The notes: generated by a model from the letters alone, not told the origin. A stretch of 64,000 bases of DNA from Marine group II euryarchaeote REDSEA-S42_B7 (GCA_001629255.1 LURZ01000001.1:6850-70849); one strand, 5' to 3'; counted from the stretch's first letter, positions 11,573 to 54,908 are shown. Translations and numbers: made by a program.

Positions 11573-11679
11573 CTCATCAACGGGGTCTGAATCACTTGCC
11601 CATCCCCTATCAACATTGGCACATAAGTTCCTGTTCCGCCCTTCTTTAATTTCAAGTATCGTCAGAATTACGGCTATAC

Positions 11680-21373: not shown

Positions 21374-21430
21374 TGGTGCTAGCAGTCATGCCAGGAATTG
21401 TTTGAAATGCCGCAGTGTGCGGAGGACAAC

Positions 21431-35624: not shown

Positions 35625-36758
35625 TCAAGGATGCCCGGGGACATCATCAGACCAGTGTGACATCTTGTTCAGAGTGATGGTCACATTAGTCACCTCTCCT
35701 TGTTCCCAGTAATCAACACCAACGAATGTCGGTCTATTTCCTACAGTTTCCCAGCATAACAGAGCTCTCTGCAATAGAGTATCGTAAGCATTGACCTGAG
35801 ACGCTTTAATTGGATCCGCAAATCCAAAATCGCTGTTTAACCAGTTATTCATATGCCAAACAGGTTGATTTGAATCGCCTCTTCCAAGATCGCAGGTCAT
35901 TTCTTCTTGGCTAGATTCTCCATACGGGGTATCCCAAGTATGCCTCCAAGCCGGCAATAATTTAGTGAAATTATCTTCATATTCCATCTGTATGAAAATC
36001 AAGACATCAGTCCCAGATAGTGACATATCCCCTAAAGACGGCCATGGGCTTCCTAATTCGTGGATGTAAGCCCTCTCCAAGATTCCTGTTTCATTCAGCA
36101 GGTACTCCAGATGCTCTCCCGGTACCGCATAGTTCTGTATCAAAAGACTGACAACGTCTCCGCTGCTATTATTATGGAGGGAATTGAGACTTCTGAGCCA
36201 AGCAAAGGCATCAACACTACCAAACAAGCATGGGGGCGTATTCGGCAAGGACGGTGCATGGCAAAAAACCACGTCCTCTTTTTCACTATTAAATTCAGAC
36301 TGGTGATAGGGGTCTAGCATGAAAGCTCTGATGCCACCCTCCCATTGACTCCGCAAACCAGTTAGATGGTTTATTCCGCCCATTATGCCATCTTCTGGGG
36401 TGGAGAATGAGTTATGACTCTCTGCGAAGGTGAAATCGTCATATGTTCTAAGGCAATAACTAGCCTCTCCGTGACAGGCGATAAAGTCATTCGGATCCAT
36501 CGGATTGAAACCCCTCTCTAACTCCCAATCGTTTGGGAGATCATCGCCATCCGCATCGTCATCCCACTCATCACACTCCATGTCTCCGTCTAGATCGTCT
36601 GGTACAGATTCACTATCAACCGGGTCAGTTCCGCACATCGCTTCCTTGGCATCGCTCCAAGAATCCCCATCATCATCCAAGTCATTGAGGTCGCATTGTG
36701 AATCGCCATCAGTGTCAGTCGGTATCACGTGCAGTTCATTTCCTCGGAGTTGCTCCAA
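35625..36758 (-). CDS. secreted Ca-binding (thrombospondin type-3-like Asp-rich repeats) protein with PLC-like phosphodiesterase domain; its N-terminal signal peptide is encoded in another frame (frameshift)
   Basis: Repeated D-x-D-G-D-x-x-x-D…WSD motifs, then an AESHNSF (PI-PLC X-box-like) domain. On the minus strand at 36760-36891 a separate frame encodes MQKKLFSFLLCVSLITPGC…DGDGWSNSEEMNCT*, a signal/lipobox-like leader plus the first Ca-binding repeat. The two frames join near 36758. Confidence 0.5.
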   Translation of the reverse strand: MEQLRGNELHVIPTDTDGDSQCDLNDLDDDGDSWSDAKEAMCGTDPVDSESVPDDLDGDMECDEWDDDADGDDLPNDWELERGFNPMDPNDFIACHGEASYCLRTYDDFTFAESHNSFSTPEDGIMGGINHLTGLRSQWEGGIRAFMLDPYHQSEFNSEKEDVVFCHAPSLPNTPPCLFGSVDAFAWLRSLNSLHNNSSGDVVSLLIQNYAVPGEHLEYLLNETGILERAYIHELGSPWPSLGDMSLSGTDVLIFIQMEYEDNFTKLLPAWRHTWDTPYGESSQEEMTCDLGRGDSNQPVWHMNNWLNSDFGFADPIKASQVNAYDTLLQRALLCWETVGNRPTFVGVDYWEQGEVTNVTITLNKMSHWSDDVPGHP

Positions 36759-39497: not shown

Positions 39498-39580
39498 GTC
39501 AGGTGGGTTGCGTTTCTACGTTTGAGAGCTTCGCGCCTGCGACTGTCATAATCTCGATGCGTATCGTTGAAAGACGGACT

Positions 39581-40807
39581 ATGTCTCGGGAGGGTGTGAA
39601 TATCCACGAGTACCAAGGTAAAGCACTCTTCAGAGAAGAGGGTGTCGCCGTGCAAGAAGGCGTTCACTGCACAACAGTCGACCAGGCTCTGGAAGCGTAC
39701 GACTCTCTTGGAAGCAAGGTCGTCGCCGTAAAGAGCCAGATACATGCGGGAGGACGTGGAAAAGGAAGCCTATACTGCCCCGACACTGGCGATTTGCAGA
39801 TGGAGGGCGGAGTCAAAATTGCCTTATCGCGTGACGAGGTCGAGACCTATTCGAAAAACATTCTAGGGAACATTCTGGTCACCAAACAGTCCGGTCCGGA
39901 AGGTAAGATGGTGAACAACCTGTACATAGAAGCAGGCTGTGAAATCGCCCATGAGTATTATCTCGCTCTCTTGGTCGACCGAGAAGAGGATGCAATCTTG
40001 GTGATGGCTTCAACTGAGGGGGGTGTTGACATAGAGGAGGTTGCTGAGACTACTCCCCAGGCTATTCACAAAGCTTGGACCGACTCATCCGGGAAACTGT
40101 CAGCTGGGGCCGACAGTGCGATGGCTGATTCACTAGGACTGACAGGCGTATCAAAGGACTCGTTCAAAAAAATGCTAGGGAGCCTGGTTTCTATGTTCGT
40201 ATCACGGGACTGTTCTATGATTGAAATAAATCCTCTTGTGAAAGCAGGAGACGGTGCGATGATCGCACTAGACTCCAAGATAAGTTTCGATGACAACGCC
40301 TCATACAGGCATCCCTGGAGAGCGGATATGAGAGACATGTCCGAAGAGGAAGAGGTCGAGATTAGGGCCAATAAATCCGGCCTATCATACGTCAAATTGG
40401 ATGGAAATATAGGTTGCCTGGTCAATGGAGCAGGATTAGCCATGGCCTCAATGGATGTTATCAAACTATACGGGGGCGAGCCTGCGAATTTCCTCGACAT
40501 CGGGGGAGGGGCTAACAAGGAGTCAATCACTACTGCCTTCGGAATAATTCTCGAGGATCCAAATGTAGAGGGCATTCTAGTGAATATCTTTGGAGGAATC
40601 ATTCGCTGTGATATGGTGGCTCGGAGCATAATCGATGCATCCAGGGAAGTCGGGCTTTCTGTTCCACTGGTCGTTAGATTCTCAGGAACAAACCACGAAG
40701 AAGGAAGGCACGTACTAGAGGAGAGCTCTCTGGAAGTCACAACCGTGGGTACGCTTGCCGATGGTGCCAAAGCAATCGTCGCTGCAACAGTTGGGGTGGA
40801 CGCTTGA
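39581..40807 (+). CDS. sucC: succinate--CoA ligase (ADP-forming) beta subunit
   Basis: [14 protein letters not shown]-grasp N-terminus. The start was moved to ATG 39581 ([12 protein letters not shown]); the track ORF begins earlier. Confidence 0.85.
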
Positions 40808-41733
40808 GTATCTGGATAAATGAATCCAGCAAGGTCCTAGTTCAGGGAATTACTGGAGGCCAGGGAACATTCCATGCCACTCGAATGACGGAGTACGGAA
40901 CAGATGTCGTGGGAGGGGTCACGCCCGGCAAAGGCGGCCAAGTGGTCGATCTCCCTGGTCGGTCTGTCCCTGTCTACGATACCATGGGGCAAGCCGTTTC
41001 CGAGACCGATGCTGATGTGAGCGTAATCTACGTTCCAGCGAGATTCGCAGCAGCAGCAATTGTCGAGGCCGCCGATGCCTTCAACGAAACTAAGGGCGAG
41101 GGATTGATCGTATGCATTACAGAAGGGATTCCTACTCTCGACATGATTAGATGCGTAGGGCACATTTCAGAAATGCCTGGAATCAGGCTTATTGGACCCA
41201 ATTGTCCAGGAATCATAACTCCCGGAGAAAATGGTGGTTGCAAGGTGGGAATCATGCCGGGATACATACACGCCAAGGGAAGAATAGGCATCATCTCGAA
41301 GTCTGGTACTCTAACCTACGAAGCAGTAGCTCAAACAATGAGTGTGGGTGAAGGTCAGACCACCTGCATAGGTATCGGAGGGGACCCTATCAGTGGAACC
41401 GGATTCATAGACTGTCTTGCTGCTTTTGAGGAGGACCCAGAAACCGAGGCCGTTGTGATGATCGGAGAGATTGGTGGGACTGCCGAAGAAGATGCTGCGG
41501 CTTGGGCTGCAGACAACTTCAGCAAGCCTATTGTCGGTTTCGTTGCAGGAGCAACAGCACCTCCGGGGAAGAGGATGGGGCACGCCGGTGCGATTATCTC
41601 CGGTGGAAAGGGCACGGCGGATGAGAAGTTCTCAGCATTCGAGAAGGCAGGGATTCACATTGCTAGAGATCCATCCAAGATTGGGGAAGTGCTAGTCTCG
41701 GTTTTGATTGAAGCCGGACTACGAGAGCCTTAG
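40804..41733 (+). CDS. sucD: succinate--CoA ligase alpha subunit
   Basis: [14 protein letters not shown] CoA-binding N-terminus and the phosphohistidine loop (…GHAGAII…). Its start overlaps the sucC stop by 4 nt, which is typical operon coupling. Confidence 0.9.
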
Positions 41734-41759: not shown

Positions 41760-42767
41760 TTGGTAACCATGTCTGGCATATTCAACTCGGAATTGGACTC
41801 AATTCTCGAGGGGACGTCACGCTCCTTCTACCTCTCCCTGAAGGAATTGCCTAGGGCCATCAGGCCTCAAGTTAGCCTTCTGTATATGCTTGCAAGGACT
41901 TCTGACACTATCGCAGACTCGGAAGGAGGGGAACCGAAGGAACTCTTGGAGGCTCTAGAGTCATACGATGATTTTACACAAGGACGGTCCTCAGACGCTC
42001 CGGAATTGTCTTCCTTCTCACAGTTTCAAAGCAATAAATCAGAAGGACTCCTTCTGAAGAATGTAGAGACAGTGGTGTCCAGGATTGAAGGATTCTCTGA
42101 CTCTGATCAGGAGGCAATTCGCTCATGCTTGGGAATCATCATCAGTGGACAGATTCTGGATTTGAATAGATTCTCACTCGCAGAGGAGGACATCGCTTCT
42201 ATAGAGAAAGATGATGAATTAGATGACTATGCATATCGAGTTGCTGGGAGTGTGGGTGAATTCTGGACCCAGATGTCGTTAACTCATCTATTCAAATTAG
42301 AATCTGAGAAGGAGAATGAGCTATTCGAGAAAGGCGTTAGGTTCGGTAAGTCACTACAGATGATCAACATCCTCAGAGATATTCCATCAGACCTTGCTCT
42401 AGGACGATGCTACATTCCCCGAAAAAGTCTGGAAGAACACAAATTGAGTCCACAAGACCTATTGGACAATTCGAAAATGGAATCCTTCAGGCCACTTTAT
42501 GACGAATATCTAGACTTGACCTCAAAGTATCTGGAGTCAGCAATCCAGTATATCGAAATGATACCTCACTCGCAGTTCCGCCTTAGAGGGTCTTGCATGC
42601 TTCCAGTAATAATTGGAAAGAGGACTGTTTCACTGCTTAGGGGTAGAAACGTTCTTGACCGAAAAGACAGGATAAAGATTGATAGATCTGAAATCAAGGA
42701 GCTAGTCAAGAAGGTTGTCATGGCCGTCCCATTCAAAGAATCTAGCAAGAGACTCCTAAGAGTTTGA
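41760..42767 (+). CDS. squalene/phytoene synthase-family protein (HpnC-like)
   Basis: Asp-rich motif SDTIAD, YAYRVAGSVGEFW (region II) and NILRDIPSDLALGRCYIP (region IV) are hallmarks of head-to-head isoprenyl diphosphate synthases. Confidence 0.65.
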   Translation: MVTMSGIFNSELDSILEGTSRSFYLSLKELPRAIRPQVSLLYMLARTSDTIADSEGGEPKELLEALESYDDFTQGRSSDAPELSSFSQFQSNKSEGLLLKNVETVVSRIEGFSDSDQEAIRSCLGIIISGQILDLNRFSLAEEDIASIEKDDELDDYAYRVAGSVGEFWTQMSLTHLFKLESEKENELFEKGVRFGKSLQMINILRDIPSDLALGRCYIPRKSLEEHKLSPQDLLDNSKMESFRPLYDEYLDLTSKYLESAIQYIEMIPHSQFRLRGSCMLPVIIGKRTVSLLRGRNVLDRKDRIKIDRSEIKELVKKVVMAVPFKESSKRLLRV

Positions 42768-42872
42768 TCACATATTTTCGAGTGTTTTCAGCTCTAAAAC
42801 TAATGATGCGCATTCCAATCGCACTCGGGAGACATTCAAGTGGACCCCGATACCGGCAACTTCTGAAGAGTT

Positions 42873-44123
42873 ATGGAGCCGGGCAAGGATTCCGACATCG
42901 AGATCGTTCTCGAGGGCGAAATGCATGAACCTAGTTTTCCGGATCCATCAACTAGTCAAGAAGAACAGATCGATATCGTCAGAGCGACTGTCGGCCTAAC
43001 AAAGGAAGCGGCCAGAGCAATCAGCATTACTGCTATCGAGGCAGTTAGGGAGGGGGCTCTATTTATGGGGGTAATAGGATCAAGAGGAGAGTTGTTTGAC
43101 CCGTTCAAGCATATCGATGCGGCAATATGGTCAGAATCAGAAATCCCCGAGCATATGATACAAACATCATACGAATTCTGTGAAGAACTCACTCGTAGGG
43201 AGGCTGGAAATTTTTACCACTCCTTCAAGTATCTCCCGGATGAGAAGAGACAGTCAATAATGGCATACTACGCCTTCTGTAGAAGGGCCGATGACATCGC
43301 AGACGGGGACTTCGTGGATATTTTCCCCGGAGGATCTTCGGACGATCCGGAGTCTGTGGACTATAGATCAAGTATTGAGAGACTGAGCCCGGGGAATCCA
43401 GTATTGGATAGATCGACCTACAATGACAAGATGTCGCAGTTATTCTACTACAGAAAGAAACTATCCACAGCGTACGGCAATGTCACTTCAACCGATCCGA
43501 TCTTCATTGCCCTAAAGGATACTGTCAGAAAATACGGTATTCAGAGGCAACTTCTCGACGATATGATCAGTGGTATGGAGAATGACTTCCACAAGAATAG
43601 GTATCAAACCTTCGAGGAACTGTATTCATACTGCTACAGAGTTGCGTCCACAGTCGGTCTAGTCTGCATAGAGATTTACGGGTACGACGATCCAAAGGCC
43701 AAGGAATATGCAGAGTCTTGGGGCGTATTCATGCAACTCATCAATATTATCAGGGACGTTGCGGAAGATGCTCAGCGCGATCGAATATACCTCCCAATGG
43801 AAGATTTAGCAAGATGGGGAATTTCAGAGGAAGACGTGAAGAGTGGCAAGGAACTACTCAACCACCCTGGATGGGCTCCTTTCGTAGAGGAGTATTTGGA
43901 CAGAGCCGATGGATACAGACAGCGCGCCTTCAAGCTACTCTCCCATCTGGACAAGTCGGCTCGCTACTCTCCAGCAGCAATGGCATCTTTCTACCAATCG
44001 ATTATGGCGAAGATAACCAAGAAGAACGGAGATGTTTTCACAGAGAGGATTCAGCTGACCAAAACGGAGAAGATCCTGCTTGCTGGATATGTGTACGCGA
44101 GGTACAGATTCTTTGGCTTCTAA
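42873..44123 (+). CDS. phytoene/squalene synthase-family protein (CrtB/HpnD-like) with N-terminal extension
   Basis: AFCRRADDIADGD (first DxxxD), YCYRVASTVGLVCIEIYG and INIIRDVAEDAQRDRIYLPMEDL (second Asp-rich motif). There are about 90 extra N-terminal residues. Confidence 0.7.
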   Translation: MEPGKDSDIEIVLEGEMHEPSFPDPSTSQEEQIDIVRATVGLTKEAARAISITAIEAVREGALFMGVIGSRGELFDPFKHIDAAIWSESEIPEHMIQTSYEFCEELTRREAGNFYHSFKYLPDEKRQSIMAYYAFCRRADDIADGDFVDIFPGGSSDDPESVDYRSSIERLSPGNPVLDRSTYNDKMSQLFYYRKKLSTAYGNVTSTDPIFIALKDTVRKYGIQRQLLDDMISGMENDFHKNRYQTFEELYSYCYRVASTVGLVCIEIYGYDDPKAKEYAESWGVFMQLINIIRDVAEDAQRDRIYLPMEDLARWGISEEDVKSGKELLNHPGWAPFVEEYLDRADGYRQRAFKLLSHLDKSARYSPAAMASFYQSIMAKITKKNGDVFTERIQLTKTEKILLAGYVYARYRFFGF

Positions 44124-44189: not shown

Positions 44190-45959
44190 ATGAGGGTGGC
44201 TGTTCTTCTCGAGGAGAGGTGCAAACCGAACAGCAATGCCTTTGCGTATCTGAAGAAGTATTCAGAGATGTGCGAAAGAGAATGCATTCAGGTAGAGGGA
44301 TCAAAATGCAAGATACTGGAGGCGGCATGTCCCGTTTGCTTCACACGAGCCAAGCACTGTCCCGATGGGGCCGTAAAGATCATCAATCTTCCAGAGGAAT
44401 TGGACACCGACCTCACTCATTCCTACGGTGAGAACGCATTCAGGTTGTTCCGCCTACCTTCTCCTCGACAAGAACAGATAGTAGGAATATTAGGTCCCAA
44501 TGGAATTGGAAAGTCCACAGCCATAAACCTCCTTTCCGGAACATTCAGGCCGAATCTCGGGGATTGGGAGAATTCATCACCAGATTGGGACGAGGTAATT
44601 TCCACGTTCCCAAGAGGTGAACTCAGAGACTACCTCGGAATGGTGTCTACGGGCGAAGTCAGTATTGCAGTAAAGCCCCAGTACATCGATAAGCTACCAC
44701 GGATATTCGATGGAGAAGTGCGGGAACTTCTAGCGAGAGTAGACGATAGAGGAGAGATGGAAAACTACACTGAACTCATGGGAATCTCCCATATTCTAGA
44801 CAGAAAACTTGGGGATCTCTCTGGTGGCGAATTACAGAGGGTGGCGATTTGTGCTACCCTACTCAAGGAAGCCGACGTCTACTTTTTCGACGAGCCATCT
44901 TCATACTTGGACATATATGAGAGAATGAGAATGGTGGGAGTGGTGAGGGGGCTAGCAGAAAAGGGAAAGAGGGTACTGGTAGTAGAGCACGATTTGGCAA
45001 TTTTGGATGTTCTTTGTAATTCCATTCACGTCATCTATGGGGAGAGATCAGCCTACGGGATTTTCACTCCCCCCAGATCCACTAGGACTGCGATAAATGC
45101 ATACCTTGACGGCTTCCTCCCGGAGGAGAATGTCAGGATTAGAGACAAGCCGATACAGTTCCTGAGGGGGCGAAATCGCGGTGAAGAGGTAGGCACTCCC
45201 ATTCTAAAATGGGGAGACATAGAGAAGACTCTAGGAGACTTCAGCCTGACTACAGGAAAGGGCGAGGTGAAGTCCGCTGAGGTCGTTGGAGTAGTTGGTC
45301 CGAATGCTACAGGAAAGACGACTCTGGTGAAGATAATTGCTGGAGAGATAGATCCCGACGAAGGTTGGTGTACCATGGATGCCAAGGTATCATACAAACC
45401 TCAGCACGTTCGTGCAGACTTCGAGGGAACCGTACAAGAATGGTTAGATACGGAGATTGGAGGAAAATGGCGAAGTGGCGAATTCCATACCCAAGTAACT
45501 AGGGCCCTACAGGTTGACAAAATGGTTGACTTGCATGCGACTAAACTTTCAGGAGGAGAACTTCAGGCAGTCAGTATCGCTATCTGCTTGGGAAAGGAGG
45601 CGGATCTGTATCTGTTCGACGAGCCCAGTGCACATCTAGATGCCAATGCTAGAATGGAGGCTGCAAAAGCGATCAGGAGGACCATGGAAAGTAATGAGAA
45701 GGCTGCGATGGTCATAGATCATGACACCTACTTCCTTGACATAGTTAGCGACTCTGTTCTGGTATTCCAAGGCAAGGGAGGGGATCATGGAAAGGCTATC
45801 GGCCCACTATCACTCCGAAAGGGAATGAACCTCTTTCTATCCGATGCCGATGTTACTTTCAGGAGGGACATAGAATCACATCGTCCAAGGATAAACAAGC
45901 CTTCTAGCAGGAAGGACCGAGAGCAGAAATCATCCGGTGAATACTTCTACTCCGACTGA
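44190..45959 (+). CDS. ABCE1/RLI ribosome-recycling ATPase
   Basis: An N-terminal 2x[4Fe-4S] ferredoxin-like Cys cluster, then twin ABC domains (GPNGIGKST / LSGGELQR). There is a strong AGGAGG motif 7 nt upstream of the ATG. Confidence 0.9.
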   Translation: MRVAVLLEERCKPNSNAFAYLKKYSEMCERECIQVEGSKCKILEAACPVCFTRAKHCPDGAVKIINLPEELDTDLTHSYGENAFRLFRLPSPRQEQIVGILGPNGIGKSTAINLLSGTFRPNLGDWENSSPDWDEVISTFPRGELRDYLGMVSTGEVSIAVKPQYIDKLPRIFDGEVRELLARVDDRGEMENYTELMGISHILDRKLGDLSGGELQRVAICATLLKEADVYFFDEPSSYLDIYERMRMVGVVRGLAEKGKRVLVVEHDLAILDVLCNSIHVIYGERSAYGIFTPPRSTRTAINAYLDGFLPEENVRIRDKPIQFLRGRNRGEEVGTPILKWGDIEKTLGDFSLTTGKGEVKSAEVVGVVGPNATGKTTLVKIIAGEIDPDEGWCTMDAKVSYKPQHVRADFEGTVQEWLDTEIGGKWRSGEFHTQVTRALQVDKMVDLHATKLSGGELQAVSIAICLGKEADLYLFDEPSAHLDANARMEAAKAIRRTMESNEKAAMVIDHDTYFLDIVSDSVLVFQGKGGDHGKAIGPLSLRKGMNLFLSDADVTFRRDIESHRPRINKPSSRKDREQKSSGEYFYSD

Positions 45960-46503
45960 GATGAACCATTGGCTTCTTGAGGGACTATTACGGCCCGACA
46001 ACGTGGCAGAAGAGTCAGAGGACGGCGGGTCAGAGGAATCATCCAATGAGGAAATAGACCTCGAGGCTAGAGTTTCCGAACTGGAGGAGGAGCTCCAGTA
46101 TGCCAAGGCAGAAACGGTAAACATCGCTCAAAGAGCTGCCAGGGACCGCTCTGAGACTCTGAAGTACGGCGGCGCCTCTCTCGCTAGGAGGCTTATTCCT
46201 GCTTTAGACCACCTTTCCAAGGCTCTAGAAGCTACAGAAGTAGGTGAAGGGACAGAGTCAGTAATTGCAGGCGTGCGACTCACCCTAGATGGACTCAGGT
46301 CATCTCTAGAGTCAGAGGGAATCAATGAGATCAAAGCCCTAGGAAACGATTTCGATCCTACTTGCATGGAGGCGATTGCCACAGTACCCTGCCCAGAAGG
46401 AAAGAATCCTGGGAGTGTGATAGAAGTCATCGAAACTGGATACAGGATGCACGACCGCATCCTCAGAGCATCAAAAGTCGTTGTCGCTGAGGGTGACTCG
46501 TGA
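45937..46503 (+). CDS. grpE: nucleotide exchange factor GrpE
   Basis: An acidic N-terminus, a coiled-coil ELEEELQYAKAETVNIAQRAARDRSE and a C-terminal beta domain (…HDRILRASKVVV). It lies about 30 kb away from dnaK. Confidence 0.8.
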   Translation: MNTSTPTEMNHWLLEGLLRPDNVAEESEDGGSEESSNEEIDLEARVSELEEELQYAKAETVNIAQRAARDRSETLKYGGASLARRLIPALDHLSKALEATEVGEGTESVIAGVRLTLDGLRSSLESEGINEIKALGNDFDPTCMEAIATVPCPEGKNPGSVIEVIETGYRMHDRILRASKVVVAEGDS

Positions 46504-47015: not shown

Positions 47016-47330
47016 TTGTCTGCAATTATTGACCCCGATATCCGAAAAGCTCACACCCTTCCGTCCGCATTCTACACAGATCCTGAGAAATTCGAGCAAA
47101 TCATGGAGGGATTTTCGCTAAATTGGCACATTGCAGCCCACGAGAGCCAGCTTTCAGGTAAGTCGGCAATTGAGCTGAGGCATCTGGAGAGTTTGCTGGG
47201 GGAGCCAATGATATTGGTATCCGGAGATGAAATCAGGTGCATATCGAACGTTTGCACCCACAGGGGGATGGATTTCCTGCTGCTGAAGATGATCTCAGAA
47301 CATTCCCCTCTACATCCTGGAAGGGACTGA
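47016..47330 (+). CDS. N-terminal Rieske-domain fragment of a Rieske non-heme iron oxygenase (truncated by frameshift/decay)
   Basis: The first Rieske ligand pair is present (C-x-H in CTHRG). The frame stops before the expected second C-x-x-H, and no frame in 47280-47340 supplies it. Confidence 0.5.
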   Translation: MSAIIDPDIRKAHTLPSAFYTDPEKFEQIMEGFSLNWHIAAHESQLSGKSAIELRHLESLLGEPMILVSGDEIRCISNVCTHRGMDFLLLKMISEHSPLHPGRD

Positions 47331-47959
47331 TTTTCACTGGTCTACAGCCATCTGGTATGGAAGCCTGTTTGGGAGAGATGGAATCTAGGGTTGGATGGAT
47401 GCCGATTGAGAAATTCGAATATGATAATTCTAGGAATAGGTGCTATGAAATCAGAGCAAATTGGGCCCTGTATGTTGATAACTACTTGGAGGGTTTCCAC
47501 ATCCCATTCGTCCACAATGACCTCAATAGGACTCTGGACTACGACGATTATAGAACTGAGATTTTCAATGGTGGAGTGCTGCAGATTGGTATCGCTAGAG
47601 ATGGGGAGCCTAGCTTCGAGATCCCTGAGGAATCACCCGACTTCGGGCTAAAAGTTGCAGCTTATTATTACTGGATTTATCCAGGTCTAATGCTCAACTT
47701 CTATCCATGGGGCCTATCTGTCAACTTAGTCCTCCCATTGTCAGTTGATCGTACTAGGATAGAGTACTATGGATTTGTATGGGATAAGAAATTCCTAGGG
47801 AAGGGTGCCGGAGGAGACCTAGACAAGGTCGAGGAAGAAGATCAGTTTGTGGTAGAGTCTACACACAGGGGCGTATCATCAGTTTCCTACGAAAGAGGGC
47901 GATACTCTCCTTCCAAAGAGATAGGCGTCCATCACTTCCACCAAATGCTATCATCTTAG
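47237..47959 (+). CDS. catalytic (mononuclear iron) domain of a Rieske non-heme iron oxygenase alpha subunit, in a different frame from its Rieske N-terminus
   Basis: NWALYVDNYLEGFHIPFVHND matches the ring-hydroxylating oxygenase alpha-subunit iron-binding motif (D/E-x3-D-x2-H-x4-H). Confidence 0.55.
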   Translation: MHIERLHPQGDGFPAAEDDLRTFPSTSWKGLIFTGLQPSGMEACLGEMESRVGWMPIEKFEYDNSRNRCYEIRANWALYVDNYLEGFHIPFVHNDLNRTLDYDDYRTEIFNGGVLQIGIARDGEPSFEIPEESPDFGLKVAAYYYWIYPGLMLNFYPWGLSVNLVLPLSVDRTRIEYYGFVWDKKFLGKGAGGDLDKVEEEDQFVVESTHRGVSSVSYERGRYSPSKEIGVHHFHQMLSS

Positions 47960-47990: not shown

Positions 47991-49991
47991 GTGCCTATGT
48001 CCCGCCAAAGAACTATTGCTACTTTGCTCGTCTTTCTATTGTTGTTGCCCGGATGTCTAAGTGATGAAACATTAGAGAATCCGGAAATTGAAGATTGTTC
48101 CACAATCATAGGAGACTCCTGCGAAAGCGAAGATACTACTGGAGGCGAGGAGGCCGTAGAGGAAGAGATATCAATATCAGGAACTAGTTTCTGCGACAAT
48201 ACAAATCCTGACCATTGCCTTTTGCCATTCCCCTCTTCTGCATTCCTTAATTCTGATTCCGGAACCATTACCGGATATAGATTGGACATCGATGGAGAGG
48301 CTATACCTGACTCAGCCTCCGCTGAGTCGGAAGATTTCCATATGCTAAATAGCAAGGACGGCCACTCCCCTTCCTCACAGATATTTACGACGTTTACTAG
48401 CATTCCCGATATATCCGGGCTCGCTTCTCAAGACTCTATACCCTCCTCACTTCTCCCTGGACACAACAGTCTCGTCTTAAATATGGATACGGGCCAGATA
48501 GTAGAACATTGGGTCGAAATCTCGGCCCGGACCCAGGAAGGCGAGCAAACCCTAGTCCATGTCCGAACCATACGAGGACTCGATCACAACACTCAGTACG
48601 CAGTTGCATTCAGGTCACTGACAGACGGAAGCGGAGATACAATCTCACCCTTCCCGGGGTTCAAAGCATTAAGGGATGGATTAGTAACTAACAACCAACA
48701 GATAGAGTCTCTCAGATCCAGCTACGAATCTATGTTCTCCTCTCTTTCTGAGATTGGCTATGAAAGGCAGAATCTTACAAGTGCATGGTGGTTTCACACT
48801 GCATCCAGCCAGTCAATCATGGGGGATATAATCTCGATGAGAAATAATGCAACCCAACTTCTAGGCGATGATGGGATAGGGTGCAATATTACGGCGGTGA
48901 ATGAGAATTATGCCGAAGACAACACAACTCTCAGGAGAATAAGTGGCACCATTACAACTCCTCATTATCTTGAATCCACATATCCCCCAACACCCATGAC
49001 CCGTTCAGAGGACGGAACTCCCAGATTCAACTTTCTGACAGAGGTTGTGTTCACAATTACGATCCCCAAGTCCGCTGCAGACGATTCACAACCTGCACCT
49101 CTCGTGGTCCTTGGGCATGGCTTCATGGGAGATGGAGAGGGCATGGTCACTGAAGCCAGAGGCTGGGCTAATGAATATGGATTTGCCACCATAGGAACTG
49201 ATTTTAAGGGTTGGAGCTCTGATGGAGATTTTGGTGCTTATACCTTCGCATTCCTAAATCCGAACTATCTACAACACCAGTCCGAGAGACTCCAGCAATC
49301 TTTGATCAATCATCTTGCAATGATTATTACAATCAAAGGGGTTTGCTCTGACCTCCCTGAATTTTACCACAACGGGGTGAACTTGGTGGACACTACCGAT
49401 ATCGATTACATGGGAGTATCACTTGGGGGAATAAGGGGCCCATCAATGCTGTCTCTAATTCAAGAAATTGACCGAGGAGTTCTTTGGGTGGGAGGCTCAT
49501 CTTTCAGCTTCATTGCTGAGAGATCCACACAATATACCCAATTTGAGGAGCTTTTCTCATCTTCTCTTGCTTACGAATCTACAATGGACAGATCGATAAT
49601 TATTGCACTTATGCAATCTATGTGGGATACTACTGAGCCTGAAACATACCTTCCTTTTGTTGACGGGGGGATGGATGGGGAACTACATCCCTACGAGATA
49701 CTCTATGTGGTTTCAATCAATGACGCGCAGGTCACGACACTCTCTGCGGATCGAGCCTCCAGGACTTCTGGAATCCCCGTTCTATCAAACTCCACATATC
49801 ACCCGTACGGTGTCGAAGTTGCCGATGCTCCGATTTCAGGTTCTGGTATTGTTTACTTCGATGGAGGATTCCCTGCAGTGCCATCAGGAAACATACAGGG
49901 GCCTATGGTGGAAGTGGCCAATGACTTTCTATTGAGTGGGGAGATAACTGACACTTGTTCGGGTGAGTGTTACTTCGAAGGGACTTGGTAG
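47991..49991 (+). CDS. secreted alpha/beta-hydrolase-fold lipoprotein
   Basis: Signal peptide with lipobox-like LLLLPGC, and a GxSxG nucleophile elbow (GVSLGG) within a VVLGHGFMGDGEG core. Length is 666 aa. Confidence 0.5.
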   Translation: MPMSRQRTIATLLVFLLLLPGCLSDETLENPEIEDCSTIIGDSCESEDTTGGEEAVEEEISISGTSFCDNTNPDHCLLPFPSSAFLNSDSGTITGYRLDIDGEAIPDSASAESEDFHMLNSKDGHSPSSQIFTTFTSIPDISGLASQDSIPSSLLPGHNSLVLNMDTGQIVEHWVEISARTQEGEQTLVHVRTIRGLDHNTQYAVAFRSLTDGSGDTISPFPGFKALRDGLVTNNQQIESLRSSYESMFSSLSEIGYERQNLTSAWWFHTASSQSIMGDIISMRNNATQLLGDDGIGCNITAVNENYAEDNTTLRRISGTITTPHYLESTYPPTPMTRSEDGTPRFNFLTEVVFTITIPKSAADDSQPAPLVVLGHGFMGDGEGMVTEARGWANEYGFATIGTDFKGWSSDGDFGAYTFAFLNPNYLQHQSERLQQSLINHLAMIITIKGVCSDLPEFYHNGVNLVDTTDIDYMGVSLGGIRGPSMLSLIQEIDRGVLWVGGSSFSFIAERSTQYTQFEELFSSSLAYESTMDRSIIIALMQSMWDTTEPETYLPFVDGGMDGELHPYEILYVVSINDAQVTTLSADRASRTSGIPVLSNSTYHPYGVEVADAPISGSGIVYFDGGFPAVPSGNIQGPMVEVANDFLLSGEITDTCSGECYFEGTW

Positions 49992-50002: not shown

Positions 50003-50881
50003 TCAAATTCTTTCTTCCCTGTTTCCAGATGTCCAGTCGTAAATCCCCTTTCCTGTCTTTTTACCCAAATTTCCGGATTCCACCAGTTTCTTTAGTAGTG
50101 GGTGCGGTTTGTAGGAATCGTCCTCAAAGGCCTCCGCCAAACTATTCAGAATATCCATCCTAACATCGAGACCCACTAGATCGGATAACTCCAAAGGTCC
50201 CATAGGATGAAGATAACCTAATTTCATCGCAGTGTCAATATCACTTGCTGATGCAACTCCTTCTGCCAGCATTCTGATTGCCTCATTACCCAATACTACT
50301 CCCAATCTACTGGTAGCAAATCCTGGAACGTCATTTACTAGTATCGTGGTCTTGCCCATAGACTCCCCTACTTTTTTAGAAATCGCAATCGTTTCCTCTG
50401 ATGTTTCTCCGTGCTTCACTATCTCGAGTAATGGCATCAGCGGGACTGGATTGAAGAAGTGCAAACCGACAAACCTCCAGGAAGTTTGGATTTCAGTGGC
50501 AATCTCCGTAATGGAAAGCCCCGAGGTGTTTGTTGCTAGGACTGCTTCCTTGGGTGCCAAACCCTCGAGTTTCCGGAAGACCGACTTCTTCAAGTCAATC
50601 TTCTCGGGGACTGCTTCTATAATCAGGTCCATACCTCTGGAAGCCTCACTTATGTCGGAGGTAGTACACAGGTTAGCCTTCCATGATGAAACCTCAACCT
50701 CTCCCGTCTTACCTTTCTCTATACCCTTCTGCCAGAAATTCAGTATACTCTCCTCGCCCTTCTTCAGAGATTTAGGAAACGCGTCGTAGAGTACAGTTTC
50801 CCATCCGGTCTGAGCGCAAACCTGGGCTATCCCAGATCCCATAGCGCCAGCGCCGATGATGCCCACTTTCCGAATTACCAC
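50003..50881 (-). CDS. 3-hydroxyacyl-CoA dehydrogenase (NAD-binding)
   Basis: VGIIGAGAMGSGIAQV Rossmann motif plus a C-terminal 3HCDH domain. The start is probably the GTG at VVIRKVGIIG (about 50881), which avoids a 60-nt overlap with the upstream gene. Confidence 0.8.
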   Translation of the reverse strand: MVIRKVGIIGAGAMGSGIAQVCAQTGWETVLYDAFPKSLKKGEESILNFWQKGIEKGKTGEVEVSSWKANLCTTSDISEASRGMDLIIEAVPEKIDLKKSVFRKLEGLAPKEAVLATNTSGLSITEIATEIQTSWRFVGLHFFNPVPLMPLLEIVKHGETSEETIAISKKVGESMGKTTILVNDVPGFATSRLGVVLGNEAIRMLAEGVASASDIDTAMKLGYLHPMGPLELSDLVGLDVRMDILNSLAEAFEDDSYKPHPLLKKLVESGNLGKKTGKGIYDWTSGNREERI

Positions 50882-50915
50882 GAGATGCGGAGAGCACCTC
50901 TCCCCATAAGCCGTA

Positions 50916-51488
50916 CTAACCCTCACGCCCGTATGCCGCGAGTGCTGACTGGAACAGTCTTTGTCGCGGTACGTCATGCTCTAGGAAGCATGTGAATGGC
51001 GCCACGTCTTTCAAAAGCTCAATCGATGAAATGTATGCGCCATAGATGAATGGGTCCGCACTCTCTGTGGAAGGAATCTGGATACCTAGCTTTGACAGGC
51101 CTTTCCTGGTATCTTCGTCCCATATCGAGTAGGTGTGGTGAGTGAAGTGAAGATAAGCGGAGAGCCTCCTAACATCGGATCTCGCCTTGTCGGTCAAACT
51201 CTCGATAAGAAGGGTGTCTGGATACTTGATTGCGTACAGGGATAGCAGCACTTCTCGCTGTGTTTCCTCTTTCCATTCTCTCTTTCCGAGGCCCATCCAA
51301 TCGTCAATCATATCTAGCATCTCGGGAGTGTAAGGTCTGCGGACTTTGTATAGCAACTCCTCGTATGAAGAAGCATCCTGGTCATCGGAGTGATGATGGT
51401 CGTGGAAGAGATCAGTCAGTCTCTCAAAGAACGGTCGACATGCCTCTTTGTCAAATGAGGATAGCGCAACATGCTGCATTATGGTCAC
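50916..51488 (-). CDS. hypothetical protein (possible accessory subunit of the adjacent di-iron oxygenase)
   Basis: Helical and His-rich near the N-terminus (HDHHHSDD). It begins with GTG 5 nt after the oxygenase stop, in another frame. Confidence 0.3.
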   Translation of the reverse strand: MTIMQHVALSSFDKEACRPFFERLTDLFHDHHHSDDQDASSYEELLYKVRRPYTPEMLDMIDDWMGLGKREWKEETQREVLLSLYAIKYPDTLLIESLTDKARSDVRRLSAYLHFTHHTYSIWDEDTRKGLSKLGIQIPSTESADPFIYGAYISSIELLKDVAPFTCFLEHDVPRQRLFQSALAAYGREG

Positions 51489-51493
51489 CTCGT

Positions 51494-52651
51494 CTATTTA
51501 CCCTTCCATTCTCTGTACTGTATCCAGTCTTCCTTCATATACACGTTAACCAGGGTATCCTCGTCCTCATCGGTAGGAAGTACGGAATCCAAATAGGCCC
51601 GATATTCTTCTTCCGACCCTTCGAAGGATTCACCTTCTACAGTGTAATTCTTCCCTGCATACTTGCCTATGCCCCTCTTGAACTTATCAGAGGGGATGTA
51701 CAACTCGGGCTCTCCTTCCTTGCGGGCCTTACTGATCCTGCCCATCTCTGCCCTGAGCTCCTGAAAGTAGAGGTCTCTGCTGGCCTCATTCAGGTGCTCT
51801 CTGTCTGCTTCCGTGTCAGCCTCTCTCTCGTCGTACCTACCTTTAATTCCGTAGACGTATGCCCACTCCGCGCTGCTGGAGTCATCTGTTCCGAAAAGGT
51901 CCAATCCGGTGCTAACCCACTTGTTGATGTATTTCTGAATGAGTGAGCAAGGGATCACTCCCTGCTTGACTACCCTACGAAGCCCGTTCGCTCCGGTTCC
52001 AAGGTGGAATGACTCTTCCTTCAGCATTGGTCCCATACTCGCAGCTAGTGGCTTGAAAGAAGAGGTGCTCAGCATCTTCAACTGGTACTTCCCGTCCCGG
52101 TCGATGAAGTGGGTGAACATGAAGAAGTCCAGCCAGTGGTCTATTGGCTCGTTGAAGGATCCAAGTATCCGAGTTCCCTCCTGAGCGTTCCTCTCGAGAA
52201 GCTTGGCGGCTTCCCTTACTCCTTGTTCGCCGAAGAACGTGCATAGCAGGTAGGCCATCTGCCAACCGTGCCTCTGTTCCTCGCACATTATTCTCAAGGC
52301 CGATTTTTTGTCATACTCGGTCGGCGCTGTTTCTAGGAGATGGTTCTGCTGTTCGACGCTGGCGAACTCGGTGTCTCCTTGGACGCTGACCATAGTCAGA
52401 ATCGCGTCAGTGATGTTCTGTTGCGGAATTTGCATCCTCCTCTCCCACTTGGGCATGCCCTCGAAGTCACCAAACTCTATTTCTGCTCCTGCTGTATCCC
52501 AATCGAATTTGATATCGAAGCTGTAATCGCCCAACCATGAGGGATCGAACCCGATTCTAGTCTGCCAGTCATTGAACATTTCAATCCAAGACTCAAAGTT
52601 CGTCGGATAATTTTGAACTATGTCAGTATCTGTCATGCTTTGCCCCAACAT
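51494..52651 (-). CDS. di-iron oxygenase of the PaaA/BoxB (acyl-CoA epoxidase) family
   Basis: Two E-x-x-H carboxylate-bridged di-iron motifs (MCEEQRHGW and LKEESFHLG) in a ferritin-like helical protein of 385 aa. Confidence 0.45.
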   Translation of the reverse strand: MLGQSMTDTDIVQNYPTNFESWIEMFNDWQTRIGFDPSWLGDYSFDIKFDWDTAGAEIEFGDFEGMPKWERRMQIPQQNITDAILTMVSVQGDTEFASVEQQNHLLETAPTEYDKKSALRIMCEEQRHGWQMAYLLCTFFGEQGVREAAKLLERNAQEGTRILGSFNEPIDHWLDFFMFTHFIDRDGKYQLKMLSTSSFKPLAASMGPMLKEESFHLGTGANGLRRVVKQGVIPCSLIQKYINKWVSTGLDLFGTDDSSSAEWAYVYGIKGRYDEREADTEADREHLNEASRDLYFQELRAEMGRISKARKEGEPELYIPSDKFKRGIGKYAGKNYTVEGESFEGSEEEYRAYLDSVLPTDEDEDTLVNVYMKEDWIQYREWKGK

Positions 52652-52697
52652 TAAGGGGTATTTCAGAGGTTGCTTTTCTTATCTACAAATGGACAGC

Positions 52698-53591
52698 CTA
52701 CTTTCCTTCAAACCTAGGTGTTTTCCTGTCAACGTATGCCTTGATACCTTCCTTTGCGTCTTCCGATTGGAATAGATCAGATTGCAATTCTCTTTCAAGA
52801 GCAAGATGGTACTCAAGCGGTATCTCCATGCCACTTTGCACGCTTCTCTTGATGTTCCCTATTGCCTTTGAAGCTGCGAATGGTAGCGAGAACCTTCCAG
52901 CGTAGTCAAGAACGTCCTGCCTAAACTCATCTAGGCTCAGTGAGTCATAGATGTCATGCACTAGATCCATTTCCCTGGATTCCTCGAAAGAGAACTTCCT
53001 TCCTGTAACCATTATCTCCATTGCTTTGGCTTTTCCGACCAGTCTAGACAGTCTAGCCGTTCCACCGGTACCTGCCAATACTCCGAGAGCGACCTCAGGC
53101 AGTCCTACCTGGTAATTGCCCTTTCTGGCTATCCGAATGTCAGCGGCCATTGCAATTTCCAGTCCGCCCCCAACCGTATGTCCGTTAAGTGCGGCTATGA
53201 CCAACTTGGGAGTCTGCTCCAAACGTGACAGAGTTTCGTTGGCGTGCAGGCAAAAGAAGTACTTGTATCTCGGAGACAGAGTGTTCAGATACTTTATGCT
53301 GGCACCTGCAGAGAAGAATTTTTCACCGTGTCCAGTTATCAGGATTACCGACACGTCATCATTGAATCTTGCTTCAAGTATGGCATCGTCAATGTCGTGC
53401 CACATCTCCCTTGTGTAGGTGTTCACCGGTGTCTTATCCCCCTCGAGTGGATCTCCGGCGGAATCGGAAATGAGCTCAATAATCGCGACTCCGTTTTTTG
53501 TCTCTCCGTAGTTAACGAGACGATTCTTCATGGGTTTAAGTTCTGGCCAAGACGTCATGCTCTCACGACTTAGTCCAGCCATATCAATCAA
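52698..53591 (-). CDS. enoyl-CoA hydratase/isomerase family protein
   Basis: Crotonase fold (LNGHTVGGGLEIAMAADIRIA). Confidence 0.75.
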   Translation of the reverse strand: MIDMAGLSRESMTSWPELKPMKNRLVNYGETKNGVAIIELISDSAGDPLEGDKTPVNTYTREMWHDIDDAILEARFNDDVSVILITGHGEKFFSAGASIKYLNTLSPRYKYFFCLHANETLSRLEQTPKLVIAALNGHTVGGGLEIAMAADIRIARKGNYQVGLPEVALGVLAGTGGTARLSRLVGKAKAMEIMVTGRKFSFEESREMDLVHDIYDSLSLDEFRQDVLDYAGRFSLPFAASKAIGNIKRSVQSGMEIPLEYHLALERELQSDLFQSEDAKEGIKAYVDRKTPRFEGK

Positions 53592-53608: not shown

Positions 53609-54832
53609 CTATTCATCCGTCTCTTTGAACGATACAGCCCCTCCCTTGCTTCTTGTGGATTTCCATTGCTCACGAACTCTTTCAGCCTCAATGCTAGGAT
53701 CCCATGAATCTCTCTTTAGCGACTTTCTGAAGGGCATCCTGTGGACAACTCTACCGTCTGAAAGATCCTTCCTTCTCAGCATTCCAATCTTGACAATCGG
53801 CCACAATGCCCTTCGGAATAGCCCGGGTTTATACAGCCAACGCATGAAGTTCAATCCGTCTCCGTTCCTCTTCTGATCTCTCATCCATTGATTTGCTACC
53901 ATCTTGAATCCTCTATCACCAACCCTGTTCATTAGGAAACGATTTATCGCGCTGGCTTTTACGAGAGGAACAAGCCTCCTCCTTACTTCTTTTTCATAGT
54001 CGAATTCCCCTAGTAAAGACTTAGCCGCCAGCACTCCACTGGTTATAGCGTATCTCATGCCAAAACCCCACATGAAGTCCTGTAGGCCCCCAGCTTCGCC
54101 AACGTACAGCCTTTCCTCATGGACGTACTTGGTAGGTATTCCGAAGTCCCCCTTCCCACCGACCCTCTTTATGGGCTCCCTATCCAAGTCGTAATTTCGT
54201 TCATACCACGCTATTGTTTCATCCAGGTATCTCCCACTATTCCTTTGTTTACGCCAAAGACAAGTGCAAATAAGCCCGATTCCGTCAATTATTATCAGGT
54301 AAGAGTATGCACCAGGGGCCAACTTGTCATTCAATTGGAAAGCCACTAGGTTTCGGTGGCTCGTATGGAATATCTCGCCGTATGCGACGGCACTCGACTC
54401 TCTAGGTCCTGCGGCAACTATGTCGCACTCCTCAGGAGATTTCTTCACTCCGTAGTGTATCTTCACTCCAGACTCTAAGGCCATCCTCTTGAACGCCTGA
54501 TCAATTGTATGCTCCGCAGTGCCTCTCTCAACCACCCTGAAAGCCACGCCTTCCGTTTTTGGATTGGTCACAACATCATCTGGGTGGATTAAATCAATAA
54601 TTCCAAATGAATCAGACTTGAACTCTGTCGCGTCGAATCCCCAATCTGCTAACTCCTCGAAGAAGTCAATATCGCTCGTCCAATTCTCGATGCCCTGGAA
54701 GTCCCCATCGAACCTTGCTCCGCTATCAGACCGGATTTCATGAACGTGAACATCCTTCCCGGCTTTTGCCAATATCGTTGCAGATGAGAGACCTGAGAGA
54801 CCTGCTCCAAGGATGTGCACTTCGGCGCTCAC
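53609..54832 (-). CDS. FAD-dependent oxidoreductase (geranylgeranyl-reductase/monooxygenase-like)
   Basis: The GxGxxG dinucleotide-binding motif reads HILGAGLSGLSSA. The start is set at the GTG preceded by GGAGG (about 54832). The track ORF extends to 55024 and would overlap moaE. Confidence 0.55.
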   Translation of the reverse strand: MSAEVHILGAGLSGLSSATILAKAGKDVHVHEIRSDSGARFDGDFQGIENWTSDIDFFEELADWGFDATEFKSDSFGIIDLIHPDDVVTNPKTEGVAFRVVERGTAEHTIDQAFKRMALESGVKIHYGVKKSPEECDIVAAGPRESSAVAYGEIFHTSHRNLVAFQLNDKLAPGAYSYLIIIDGIGLICTCLWRKQRNSGRYLDETIAWYERNYDLDREPIKRVGGKGDFGIPTKYVHEERLYVGEAGGLQDFMWGFGMRYAITSGVLAAKSLLGEFDYEKEVRRRLVPLVKASAINRFLMNRVGDRGFKMVANQWMRDQKRNGDGLNFMRWLYKPGLFRRALWPIVKIGMLRRKDLSDGRVVHRMPFRKSLKRDSWDPSIEAERVREQWKSTRSKGGAVSFKETDE

Positions 54833-54908
54833 GGTTTCGCGACCTCCTATGTTCGCTTGAACGGTTGGGTCACCCGTCGGTTTCAAGGCATAAATCCCAT
54901 GGGGGGGC

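Follow-up and report, generated by a model that had tools for sequence, protein, structure and literature searches.

A squalene synthase-like gene beside hpnD in Marine Group II archaea: a probable hybrid squalene module at one chromosomal site

The window considered here, a stretch of 64,000 nucleotides from the Marine group II euryarchaeote REDSEA-S42_B7 (GCA_001629255.1, LURZ01000001.1:6850-70849), carries two adjacent plus-strand open reading frames (ORFs) of the SQS_PSY family, referred to as genes A and B. Gene A (41,769-42,767) encodes a Sqs/FdfT-type squalene synthase-like protein of 332 amino acids, as judged from Pfam, NCBIfam, tree and fold, and gene B (42,873-44,123) encodes a putative HpnD-type presqualene diphosphate synthase of 416 amino acids, as judged from Pfam, NCBIfam and synteny. 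The two are separated by a 105-bp spacer (42,768-42,872). A TTG at 41,760 would open a longer reading frame for A (41,760-42,767), but the true start is probably the ATG at 41,769, homologues being 332-333 amino acids long. Both products match the whole Pfam domain PF00494 SQS_PSY (A with 155.6 bits and B with 231.8 bits, cut-off 26) and their catalytic motifs are intact and invariant, which bears out an earlier note, made from the sequence alone, in its claim of two adjacent, co-directional head-to-head synthase genes. The pair is framed on the same strand by two synteny anchors, sucC and sucD for succinyl-CoA synthetase upstream (39,503-41,733), with 35 nt between the sucD stop and the start of A at 41,769, and the genes for ABCE1/RLI and GrpE downstream (44,190-46,503). 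The closest matches to A and B come from metagenome-assembled genomes (MAGs) of Candidatus Poseidoniales and Thalassarchaeaceae of the MGIIb type, with identities that reach 98% against MAGs and single-cell genomes from the Red Sea; by its sequence the organism is a Marine Group II (MGII) archaeon of the Poseidoniales, family Thalassarchaeaceae.

Gene A is assigned to the Sqs/FdfT squalene synthase lineage and not to HpnC on account of its motifs, catalytic residues, tree position, profile matches to solved structures and predicted fold. Near its N-terminus lies an SRSF flap motif (41,817-41,828, residues 17-20) that aligns with Ser51-Phe54 of human squalene synthase (SQS) and in which, among 58 A-family sequences, S17 and R18 are invariant and S19 and F20 nearly so. 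The first Asp-rich motif, DTIAD (41,904-41,918, residues 46-50), has D46 and D50 invariant and T47 nearly so in the same sequences, and is of the DTxxD form that is a signature of Sqs as opposed to the DDxxD of other subfamilies (PMC7306690). The tyrosine-containing segment YAYRVAGSVG belongs to the stretch DDYAYRVAGSVG (42,222-42,257, residues 152-163), where Tyr154 is the counterpart of the human catalytic Tyr171 and Y154, G160 and G163 are invariant. The second Asp-rich motif, DIPSD (42,378-42,392, residues 204-208), has Q197 and N200 upstream of it, equivalent to human Q212 and N215. The catalytic residues of human SQS are Ser51, Ser53, Tyr171 and Gln212 (PMC4823828), and their equivalents in A (S17, S19, Y154 and Q197) are invariant or nearly so throughout the 58 family members. 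Towards the C-terminus IKIDR (42,672-42,686) aligns with human 314-VKIRK-318, which has been proposed, as a suggestion only, to be the site for nicotinamide adenine dinucleotide phosphate (NADPH) (PMC10378455). A (V/I)K(I/V)xR segment is found in most of the A-family sequences shown, with variants such as VRVPR and SKVRR in some, as well as in human and haloarchaeal SQS, and is absent from HpnC, HpnD, CrtB, CrtM and B in the alignment.

These affinities run counter to the proposal in the earlier note that the upstream gene is an HpnC. On the NCBIfam HpnC model (TIGR03464) A obtains a partial match of 66.7 bits against a cut-off of 250.45, and the only NCBIfam model that aligns to A over its full length is squal_synth (TIGR01559). 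The ENFPVAS and SAxPVG signatures, present in all four aligned HpnC sequences, are absent from A, which has TSRSF and VAGSVG instead. In a neighbour-joining tree with 200 bootstraps the A family groups with haloarchaeal Sqs and human SQS, apart from HpnC, HpnD, CrtB, CrtM and B, with 98.5% support, and in the same tree the genuine MGII HpnC joins bacterial HpnC at 87%. A profile of the A family retrieves squalene synthases from the PDB over their full length with E = 1e-31 to 1e-32, the chain labelled ‘HpnC’ reaching 1e-10. The AlphaFold2 model of A has a predicted local distance difference test score (pLDDT) of 94.3, and Foldseek places the SQS of Trypanosoma cruzi, human and Aspergillus flavus on top with template modelling (TM) scores of 0.73-0.78, CrtM following at 0.59-0.63. 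When MGII HpnC is used as the tblastn query it matches only B-type genes and never A. Among named proteins A comes closest to the farnesyl-diphosphate farnesyltransferases of Burkholderia, Caballeronia and Cupriavidus, with which it is 35-38% identical along 81-97% of the length, and the best solved-structure match of the Burkholderia relative is human squalene synthase, again full-length. The family is large, an exhaustive search returning 441 cluster representatives at E <= 1e-30 with 33-45% identity, and a Verrucomicrobiales protein is among its nearest members outside MGII.

Gene B is identified as the MGII orthologue of HpnD, an assignment that leans on synteny, the ranking of hidden Markov models and published maximum-likelihood trees. 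Its first Asp-rich motif, DDIAD (43,290-43,304, residues 140-144), is of the DDxxD form found in HpnC, HpnD, CrtB and CrtM; the stretch YSYCYRVASTVG (43,623-43,658, residues 251-262) holds the tyrosine-containing segment YCYRVASTVG; and the second Asp-rich motif is DVAED (43,755-43,769, residues 295-299). The residues of all three are invariant among 34 B-family sequences. On alignment the essential Asp-rich residues are thus kept in both copies, as the earlier note had them, and with catalytic motif residues invariant in both families neither copy is degenerate. The best NCBIfam model for B is HpnD (TIGR03465) at 222.5 bits, followed by a cyanobacterial CrtB model at 183.2 bits and HpnC at 172, and all three CrtB equivalog cut-offs are missed (183.2 against 550, 131.6 against 500 and 110 against 480 bits). 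The best named relatives are HpnD proteins of Streptomyces (E = 1e-34 to 1e-39), with CrtB and CrtM at 1e-27 or weaker, and published maximum-likelihood trees put Poseidoniia sequences in HpnD (PMC7306690). In 43 metagenome loci and in one genome locus, L079, of Poseidoniales UWMA-0357, the gene right after hpnE-hpnC is an orthologue of B that is 54-75% identical to it and shares its N-terminal extension. In the three of these loci that were scored HpnE obtains 303-314 bits (cut-off 283) and HpnC 279-297 bits (cut-off 250.45). As the third member of these bona fide hpn clusters the B orthologue can have no role in them other than that of HpnD, and MGII B orthologues inside complete clusters reach 218-224 bits on the HpnD model, the same range as B itself. 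The HpnD-like half of the pair described in the earlier note therefore stands, and the HpnC half gives way to an enzyme of the Sqs lineage.

B differs from the families it resembles by two additions. The N-terminal extension (42,873-43,157), delimited by Pfam, alignment and conservation, is MGII-specific and about 95 amino acids long, close to the 90 noted earlier, the catalytic domain beginning at about residue 95-108. Its residues 1-32 are variable and acidic; from 33 to 95 conservation is high and many positions are invariant. A second, MGII-specific addition absent from the earlier note is an insertion of about 35 amino acids in the region after the first Asp-rich motif (43,308-43,472), where alignments of B with PDB chains as well as with the HpnD model break in two and which also contains many invariant positions. 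The extension is present in lineages that keep HpnC and HpnE too. An AlphaFold2 prediction of B from a 34-sequence MGII alignment is unusable, with a mean pLDDT of 54 and values below 40 in the extension.

The chromosomal position of the pair is strongly conserved. Scanning a genome collection with B recovers 65 MGII loci, 59 of which have the order sucC-sucD-A-B-ABCE1-GrpE; five of the other six end at a contig edge within 300 nt of B, and the sixth is L079 with hpnE-hpnC. In the 59 loci A and B are adjacent and co-directional with a gap of about 110-240 nt by tblastn match coordinates, and hpnD is kept in every assessable A-bearing locus (59/59). In L079 the order is sucC, sucD, a zinc-ribbon gene, hpnE, hpnC, the B orthologue, a PPDK_N-like gene and ABCE1, with 303 bits for HpnE (cut-off 283) and 297 bits for HpnC (cut-off 250.45). 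A metagenome scan with the HpnC of L079 adds the 43 loci mentioned above, where hpnE-hpnC is followed by the B orthologue wherever the contig reaches and HpnC always has HpnE alongside. Thirteen of the 43 show the layout of the window as far as the contig extends (sucC-sucD-X-B-ABCE1-GrpE), with hpnE-hpnC as X and a B that is 71-75% identical to that of the window. Two metagenome loci that were scored give 314 bits for HpnE, 279.5 and 289 bits for HpnC and 218 bits for a B orthologue with the extension present. The layout of the window recurs in one more MGII lineage, with an A of only 50% identity. By this synteny the window carries a hybrid locus, one Sqs-type gene having replaced the hpnE-hpnC of the older bacterial three-enzyme route and hpnD having been kept.

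On the HpnD tree the Sqs-state and HpnC-state loci are interleaved. The Sqs-state locus L076 (Poseidoniaceae) falls inside an HpnC-state clade (98-100% bootstrap), L112 and L114, which are in the HpnC state, fall among Sqs-state lineages (77-84%), and monophyly of the Sqs state receives 0% support. This pattern implies that the exchange took place more than once or that the cassette spread between lineages by recombination. In the five bacterial contexts inspected the A-family gene stands alone with no hpnD nearby (5/5), and a published survey found no Sqs near HpnD (PMC7306690). As the bacterial A-family genes stand alone, the adjacency of A and hpnD is a trait of MGII that came about through the replacement.

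Several features of these loci may be recorded in their own right. The bacterial A-family gene follows the gene for argininosuccinate lyase in L127 and L130, and a diaminopimelate decarboxylase gene lies downstream in L127 and L129. In L127, L129 and L130, which hold the closest bacterial relatives of A, there then follows a low-complexity protein rich in Pro, Glu and Lys with no Pfam family, and this conserved neighbour was rejected as an enzyme partner for that reason. The MGIIa-like hpn loci have a zinc-ribbon protein of 438-529 amino acids encoded on the opposite strand between sucD and hpnE (5815-7341 in L079; found in L079, L081-L096, L108, L110-L111, L115 and L117-L121), and the genes inserted between sucD and A or hpnE were rejected as pathway members, being such opposite-strand zinc-ribbon genes. 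Between hpnD and ABCE1, five to seven loci (the L079/L081 group, L108, L115 and L119) encode a 981-amino-acid protein (11289-14234 on the plus strand of L079) with a PPDK_N domain, phosphoenolpyruvate-utilising and ATP-binding, and a weak receiver-domain match. Neither this gene nor the zinc-ribbon gene is present in the window. L076 has after hpnD a gene for a 441-amino-acid multi-pass membrane protein (9733-11058, plus strand) that matches no family and has no homologue in the other fetched loci, and ABCE1 was not found on the L076 locus as fetched. Locus L061 (PBPC01000088.1) is titled ‘Gemmatimonadetes bacterium RS373’ but has the sucC-sucD-A-B-ABCE1-GrpE order with 60-96% protein identity to the window, and is probably a mis-binned archaeal contig.

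Ratios of nonsynonymous to synonymous substitution (dN/dS) were derived from close orthologue pairs with unsaturated dS. They amount to 0.07-0.10 for A, 0.011-0.025 for the catalytic core of B and 0-0.05 for residues 33-95 of its extension, nonsynonymous change in B being about 2-5 times slower than in A over most of the range. Ratios this low indicate that both genes and the extension of B are functional and that B is no decaying remnant. Where dS is unsaturated, the retained hpnD is under very strong purifying selection.

The surroundings of the pair offer no obvious further enzyme of the pathway. Neither Pfam scans of about 50 ORFs nor tblastn brought up a further gene for isoprenoids, carotenoids or an amine oxidase in the window. 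By tblastn, homologues of HpnE, CrtI and CrtN are absent from the 64-kb window and from within 10 kb of A in 64 A-type loci, and crtI, crtY and blh are likewise absent from the window and from within 10 kb across the 64 loci. This agrees with the earlier note, which saw no HpnE adjacent and named a flavin adenine dinucleotide (FAD) oxidoreductase at 53,609 as the nearest one. The product of this gene (53,609-55,024, minus strand), a 471-amino-acid FAD/NAD(P)-binding protein, was rejected as an HpnE, CrtN or squalene epoxidase, its matches being confined to the Rossmann motif (about 35 residues); on the HpnE model TIGR03467 it aligns to the first 36 positions only and reaches 24 bits where the cut-off is 283. 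The protein weakly resembles geranylgeranyl reductases and FixC, and its gene adjoins those for an enoyl-CoA hydratase, a PaaA/PaaC-like protein and a 3-hydroxyacyl-CoA dehydrogenase (50,003-53,591) in a beta-oxidation-like cluster; in many MGIIb loci it is likewise found some 10 kb downstream of B.

In the bacterial three-step route HpnD joins two molecules of farnesyl diphosphate (FPP) into presqualene diphosphate (PSPP), HpnC converts PSPP to hydroxysqualene and HpnE reduces this to squalene with FADH2 (Pan et al. 2015 in PMC7306690), whereas Sqs carries FPP through PSPP to squalene with NADPH in a single active site (PMC7306690). A split route of HpnD and FdfT has been proposed for Acidobacteria (PMC5462960). 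It is proposed that A and B probably constitute such a hybrid squalene module of HpnD and an Sqs-type enzyme. B would join two FPP head-to-head to give PSPP, and A would take PSPP to squalene by an NADPH-dependent reductive rearrangement, while A may also form PSPP itself, having all the first-half-reaction residues that were checked. One NADPH-using enzyme would then stand in place of HpnC and its FAD reductase HpnE, with the PSPP-forming HpnD kept, and the missing HpnE is explained by the Sqs-type enzyme using NADPH and needing no FAD partner. Of the products suggested in the earlier note, squalene (C30) is the most likely, and neither a carotenoid precursor nor C40 coupling is favoured. No triterpene cyclases are known in Archaea (PMC7306690); the squalene would probably be an apolar constituent of the membrane, as it is in haloarchaea, and where CrtN is present it may be a substrate of that enzyme. 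It may tentatively be suggested that A has come to depend on HpnD, which would make the two a prokaryotic two-protein squalene synthase comparable to the SSL-1/SSL-2 pair of the alga Botryococcus.

A number of observations weigh against this reading. On squal_synth A obtains 62.9 bits where 286.75 are required, although the threshold is also missed by haloarchaeal Sqs with 108 bits and Burkholderia FdfT with 83, and the model seems suited to near relatives of the eukaryotic enzymes alone. Phe288 and 314-VKIRK-318 have been linked to the second half-reaction of SQS (PMC10378455), and the mammalian F286/F288 region reads R-L-R in A; as Phe288 is also missing from haloarchaeal Sqs, its loss was not used as a sign that A cannot perform the second half-reaction. 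A retains all first-step residues, so that HpnD may be formally redundant, in which case its being kept would call for a different explanation. On the side of B, the 222.5 bits on the HpnD model fall short of the equivalog cut-off of 278.6, and the model is unspecific, giving 193 bits to a true Thermus CrtB and 154 to staphylococcal CrtM. In the neighbour-joining tree, where the placement suggested as a check on the pair is firm for A, B remains unplaced among HpnD, CrtB and CrtM, and the four HpnD references are not monophyletic. The 105-bp spacer does not establish co-transcription of A and B. In the literature we found no biochemically characterised member of the A sub-family, no biochemistry on MGII HpnD and no report of squalene from the uncultured MGII cells.

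The full set of first-step residues in A also gives some weight to the view that A is a self-sufficient squalene synthase, converting FPP to squalene, and that HpnD is retained for some other essential task. A carries both Asp-rich motifs as well as counterparts of human S51, S53, Y171 and Q212, which the first half-reaction requires, and bacterial A-family genes occur without an adjacent hpnD. This other task could be the supply of PSPP, dehydrosqualene or another head-to-head product, for instance for a CrtN-type desaturase: crtN has been reported beside hpnD in some Poseidoniia and the role of HpnD alone has been stressed as open (PMC9907078), and the lineage-specific extension and insertion of B could mark a modified function. 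However, both additions also occur in lineages with a complete hpnE-hpnC-hpnD set and are thus not tied to a new role, there is no CrtN or CrtI in the window or within 10 kb in A-bearing loci, and the location of A at the HpnC/HpnE site, beside hpnD in every lineage, argues for continued cooperation. On balance a self-sufficient A with an independently employed HpnD is considered unlikely.

The chances are slim that B is an ordinary CrtB phytoene synthase making carotenoids, for example towards retinal for MGII proteorhodopsin. Such a role would suit the name ‘phytoene synthase’ that the Joint Genome Institute (JGI) gives to homologues of B, the best PDB profile matches, which are to CrtM and phytoene synthase (E = 1e-34 to 1e-39) in a database that holds no HpnD structure, the 183 bits on the cyanobacterial CrtB model and the failure of the neighbour-joining tree to separate B from CrtB. 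The three CrtB cut-offs are nevertheless missed by hundreds of bits, and for B the HpnD model leads the best CrtB model by about 39 bits, whereas for true CrtB and CrtM sequences the two give roughly the same score. Orthologues of B sit inside hpnE-hpnC-hpnD clusters. The idea of a carotenoid precursor is weakened further by the lack of crtI, crtY and blh in the window and within 10 kb (64 loci), with no desaturase within that distance in A-bearing loci, and by the absence of the retinal-forming beta-carotene 15,15'-oxygenase from all but one MGIIb subclade (PMC6336850).

Slimmer still is the chance that the enzymes use geranylgeranyl diphosphate (GGPP) to make C40 products (lycopaoctaene or lycopersene) or mixed C35 hydrocarbons, in the manner of Botryococcus LOS. 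The alignment bears on this, and on the CrtB question, at the position of CrtM Phe26, which is reportedly a chain-length determinant: CrtBs have Ser there and B has Phe, as in the C30-specific CrtM, while A has Leu, which is reportedly permissive for C40 in CrtM mutants. Chain length in SQS-like enzymes can shift with no change in a known catalytic residue, as in LOS (PMC4823828). Both families are otherwise tied to FPP and squalene, and HpnC and HpnE of the sister lineages pass the equivalog thresholds of the C30 route. Haloarchaea, too, make C30 squalene with Sqs despite a GGPP-based lipid metabolism. The evidence against C40 coupling is weak. Were it true, one of the most abundant groups of planktonic archaea would form such hydrocarbons through a split PSPP-like route and would be a source of the marine biomarker lycopane, the origin of which is still debated.

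Least probable, and contradicted by the sequences, is an HpnC/HpnD pair of the three-step route with HpnE encoded elsewhere and hydroxysqualene as the product, since, for all the resemblance of two tandem SQS_PSY genes with an HpnD-like B to hpnC-hpnD, A fails the HpnC tests of score, signatures, tree and PDB profile, is never matched by MGII HpnC in tblastn and lacks the HpnE that real HpnC in the sister lineages always has beside it, hpnC and hpnE being usually lost in Poseidoniia with sqs (PMC9907078).

The hybrid module proposed for A and B may be set beside the known systems. With the bacterial HpnC-HpnD-HpnE route it would share the first step, from two FPP to PSPP, through B as the orthologue of the HpnD member, and sister MGII lineages carry the full set in the order hpnE-hpnC-hpnD at the same chromosomal position, but the window has neither HpnC nor HpnE and a single Sqs-type gene instead. 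MGII HpnD differs from bacterial HpnD by the extension of about 95 and the insertion of about 35 amino acids and by its score below the NCBIfam cut-off, and while bacterial hpn genes usually lie beside shc and hopanoid genes, the neighbours in the window are housekeeping genes. The bacterial Sqs/FdfT proteins of Burkholderia, Caballeronia, Cupriavidus, Acidobacteria and Verrucomicrobia are A's own family and share its motifs, with full-length identities of 33-45% to metagenomic representatives and 35-38% to Burkholderiaceae. Their genes lie away from hpnD in the five contexts, whereas MGII A is always immediately upstream of it. Sqs with a lone hpnD after the loss of hpnC and hpnE is also known from Acidobacteria and Verrucomicrobia (PMC5462960, PMC9907078).

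With the eukaryotic SQS of human (FDFT1), T. cruzi and A. flavus (1EZF, 3WCA, 7WGH) A shares the same fold over its full length, the SRSF flap, DTxxD, Tyr171, Gln212, the second Asp-rich motif and the VKIRK-like segment; it differs in its low identity (17-22%), in Arg-Leu-Arg for Phe286/Phe288 and in having no C-terminal membrane anchor. The characterised bacterial Sqs of Thermosynechococcus and Methylococcus were set beside the eukaryotic enzymes in this comparison. Apart from MGII, the only archaea that have an enzyme of the Sqs lineage are the haloarchaea, represented here by Halomicrobium and Haloarcula plasmid copies. Their enzyme groups with human SQS and the A family and also lacks Phe288 but is only 23-25% identical to A. 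It was acquired separately, and hpnD has not been reported in haloarchaea (PMC7306690), where squalene is an apolar membrane component (cited in PMC9907078). The closest analogue of a division into two proteins for two half-reactions is found in Botryococcus braunii, in which SSL-1 supplies the PSPP that SSL-2 or SSL-3 goes on to convert (PMC4823828). The Botryococcus SSLs are recent paralogues of one SQS, whereas the MGII partners come from two distant subfamilies brought together by gene replacement. CrtB and CrtM belong to the same superfamily and include the best solved-structure relatives of B, which is publicly annotated as phytoene synthase, but they are set apart by the lack of a nearby desaturase, by CrtB models missed by hundreds of bits and by the hpn-cluster orthologues of B.

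The rest of the neighbourhood is of a housekeeping nature, with genes for triose-phosphate isomerase, a nucleotidyl transferase, sucC and sucD directly upstream and for thermosome, Hsp70, CTP synthase, threonyl-tRNA synthetase, Cdc6/Orc1 and the beta-oxidation-like cluster elsewhere in the window. The Cdc6/Orc1 homologue (62,972-63,964, minus strand) lies at the end of the window and a replication origin may be near. A Rieske/ring-hydroxylating oxygenase gene (47,016-47,959, plus strand) occupies two frames, the Rieske part at 47,016-47,330 and the catalytic part at 47,237-47,959; since the two share a single frame in more than 50 orthologous MGII loci, the split indicates a frameshift, whether from an assembly error or in a pseudogene. 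A probably secreted 666-amino-acid protein (47,991-49,991, plus strand) with a weak VolA/Pla-1 phospholipase match and a 697-amino-acid protein (26,081-28,174, plus strand) with a PAP2 phosphatase domain could both be relevant to the turnover of lipids. Four sizeable ORFs have no Pfam match, namely those at 21,398-23,950 (plus strand, 850 amino acids), 30,499-31,404 (plus, 301), 35,625-36,758 (minus, 377) and 78-923 (plus, 281), and those of 301 and 377 amino acids have no NCBIfam match either.

The gene pair adds a well-documented case to known families and does not amount to a new kind of system. Poseidoniia have been described as the only archaea with HpnCDE and/or Sqs, and as usually having just hpnD and sqs left (PMC7306690, PMC9907078), and the presence of the two genes has already been reported by Santana-Molina et al. 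(2020, 2022). We have not found in the literature a description of sqs and hpnD as strictly adjacent in MGII (no Sqs near HpnD is given in the 2020 paper), of hpnE-hpnC repeatedly giving way to sqs at a single orthologous site, of the very strong constraint on the retained hpnD, or of the extension and insertion of MGII HpnD. The HpnD assignment corrects the public label of B as a phytoene synthase. MGII archaea are among the most abundant microbes of the surface ocean, yet none is in culture and what lipids their membranes contain is in dispute, and a conserved, strongly constrained squalene module bears on both their membranes and their biomarkers. The repeated replacement of hpnE-hpnC by sqs, in which hpnD is never dropped, amounts to a natural experiment on the role of HpnD beside Sqs, and also bears on whether FdfT-type ‘Sqs’ is a full squalene synthase or performs the second half-reaction only. 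With four proteins now defined for comparison (A, B, MGII HpnC and MGII HpnE) the question is directly testable.

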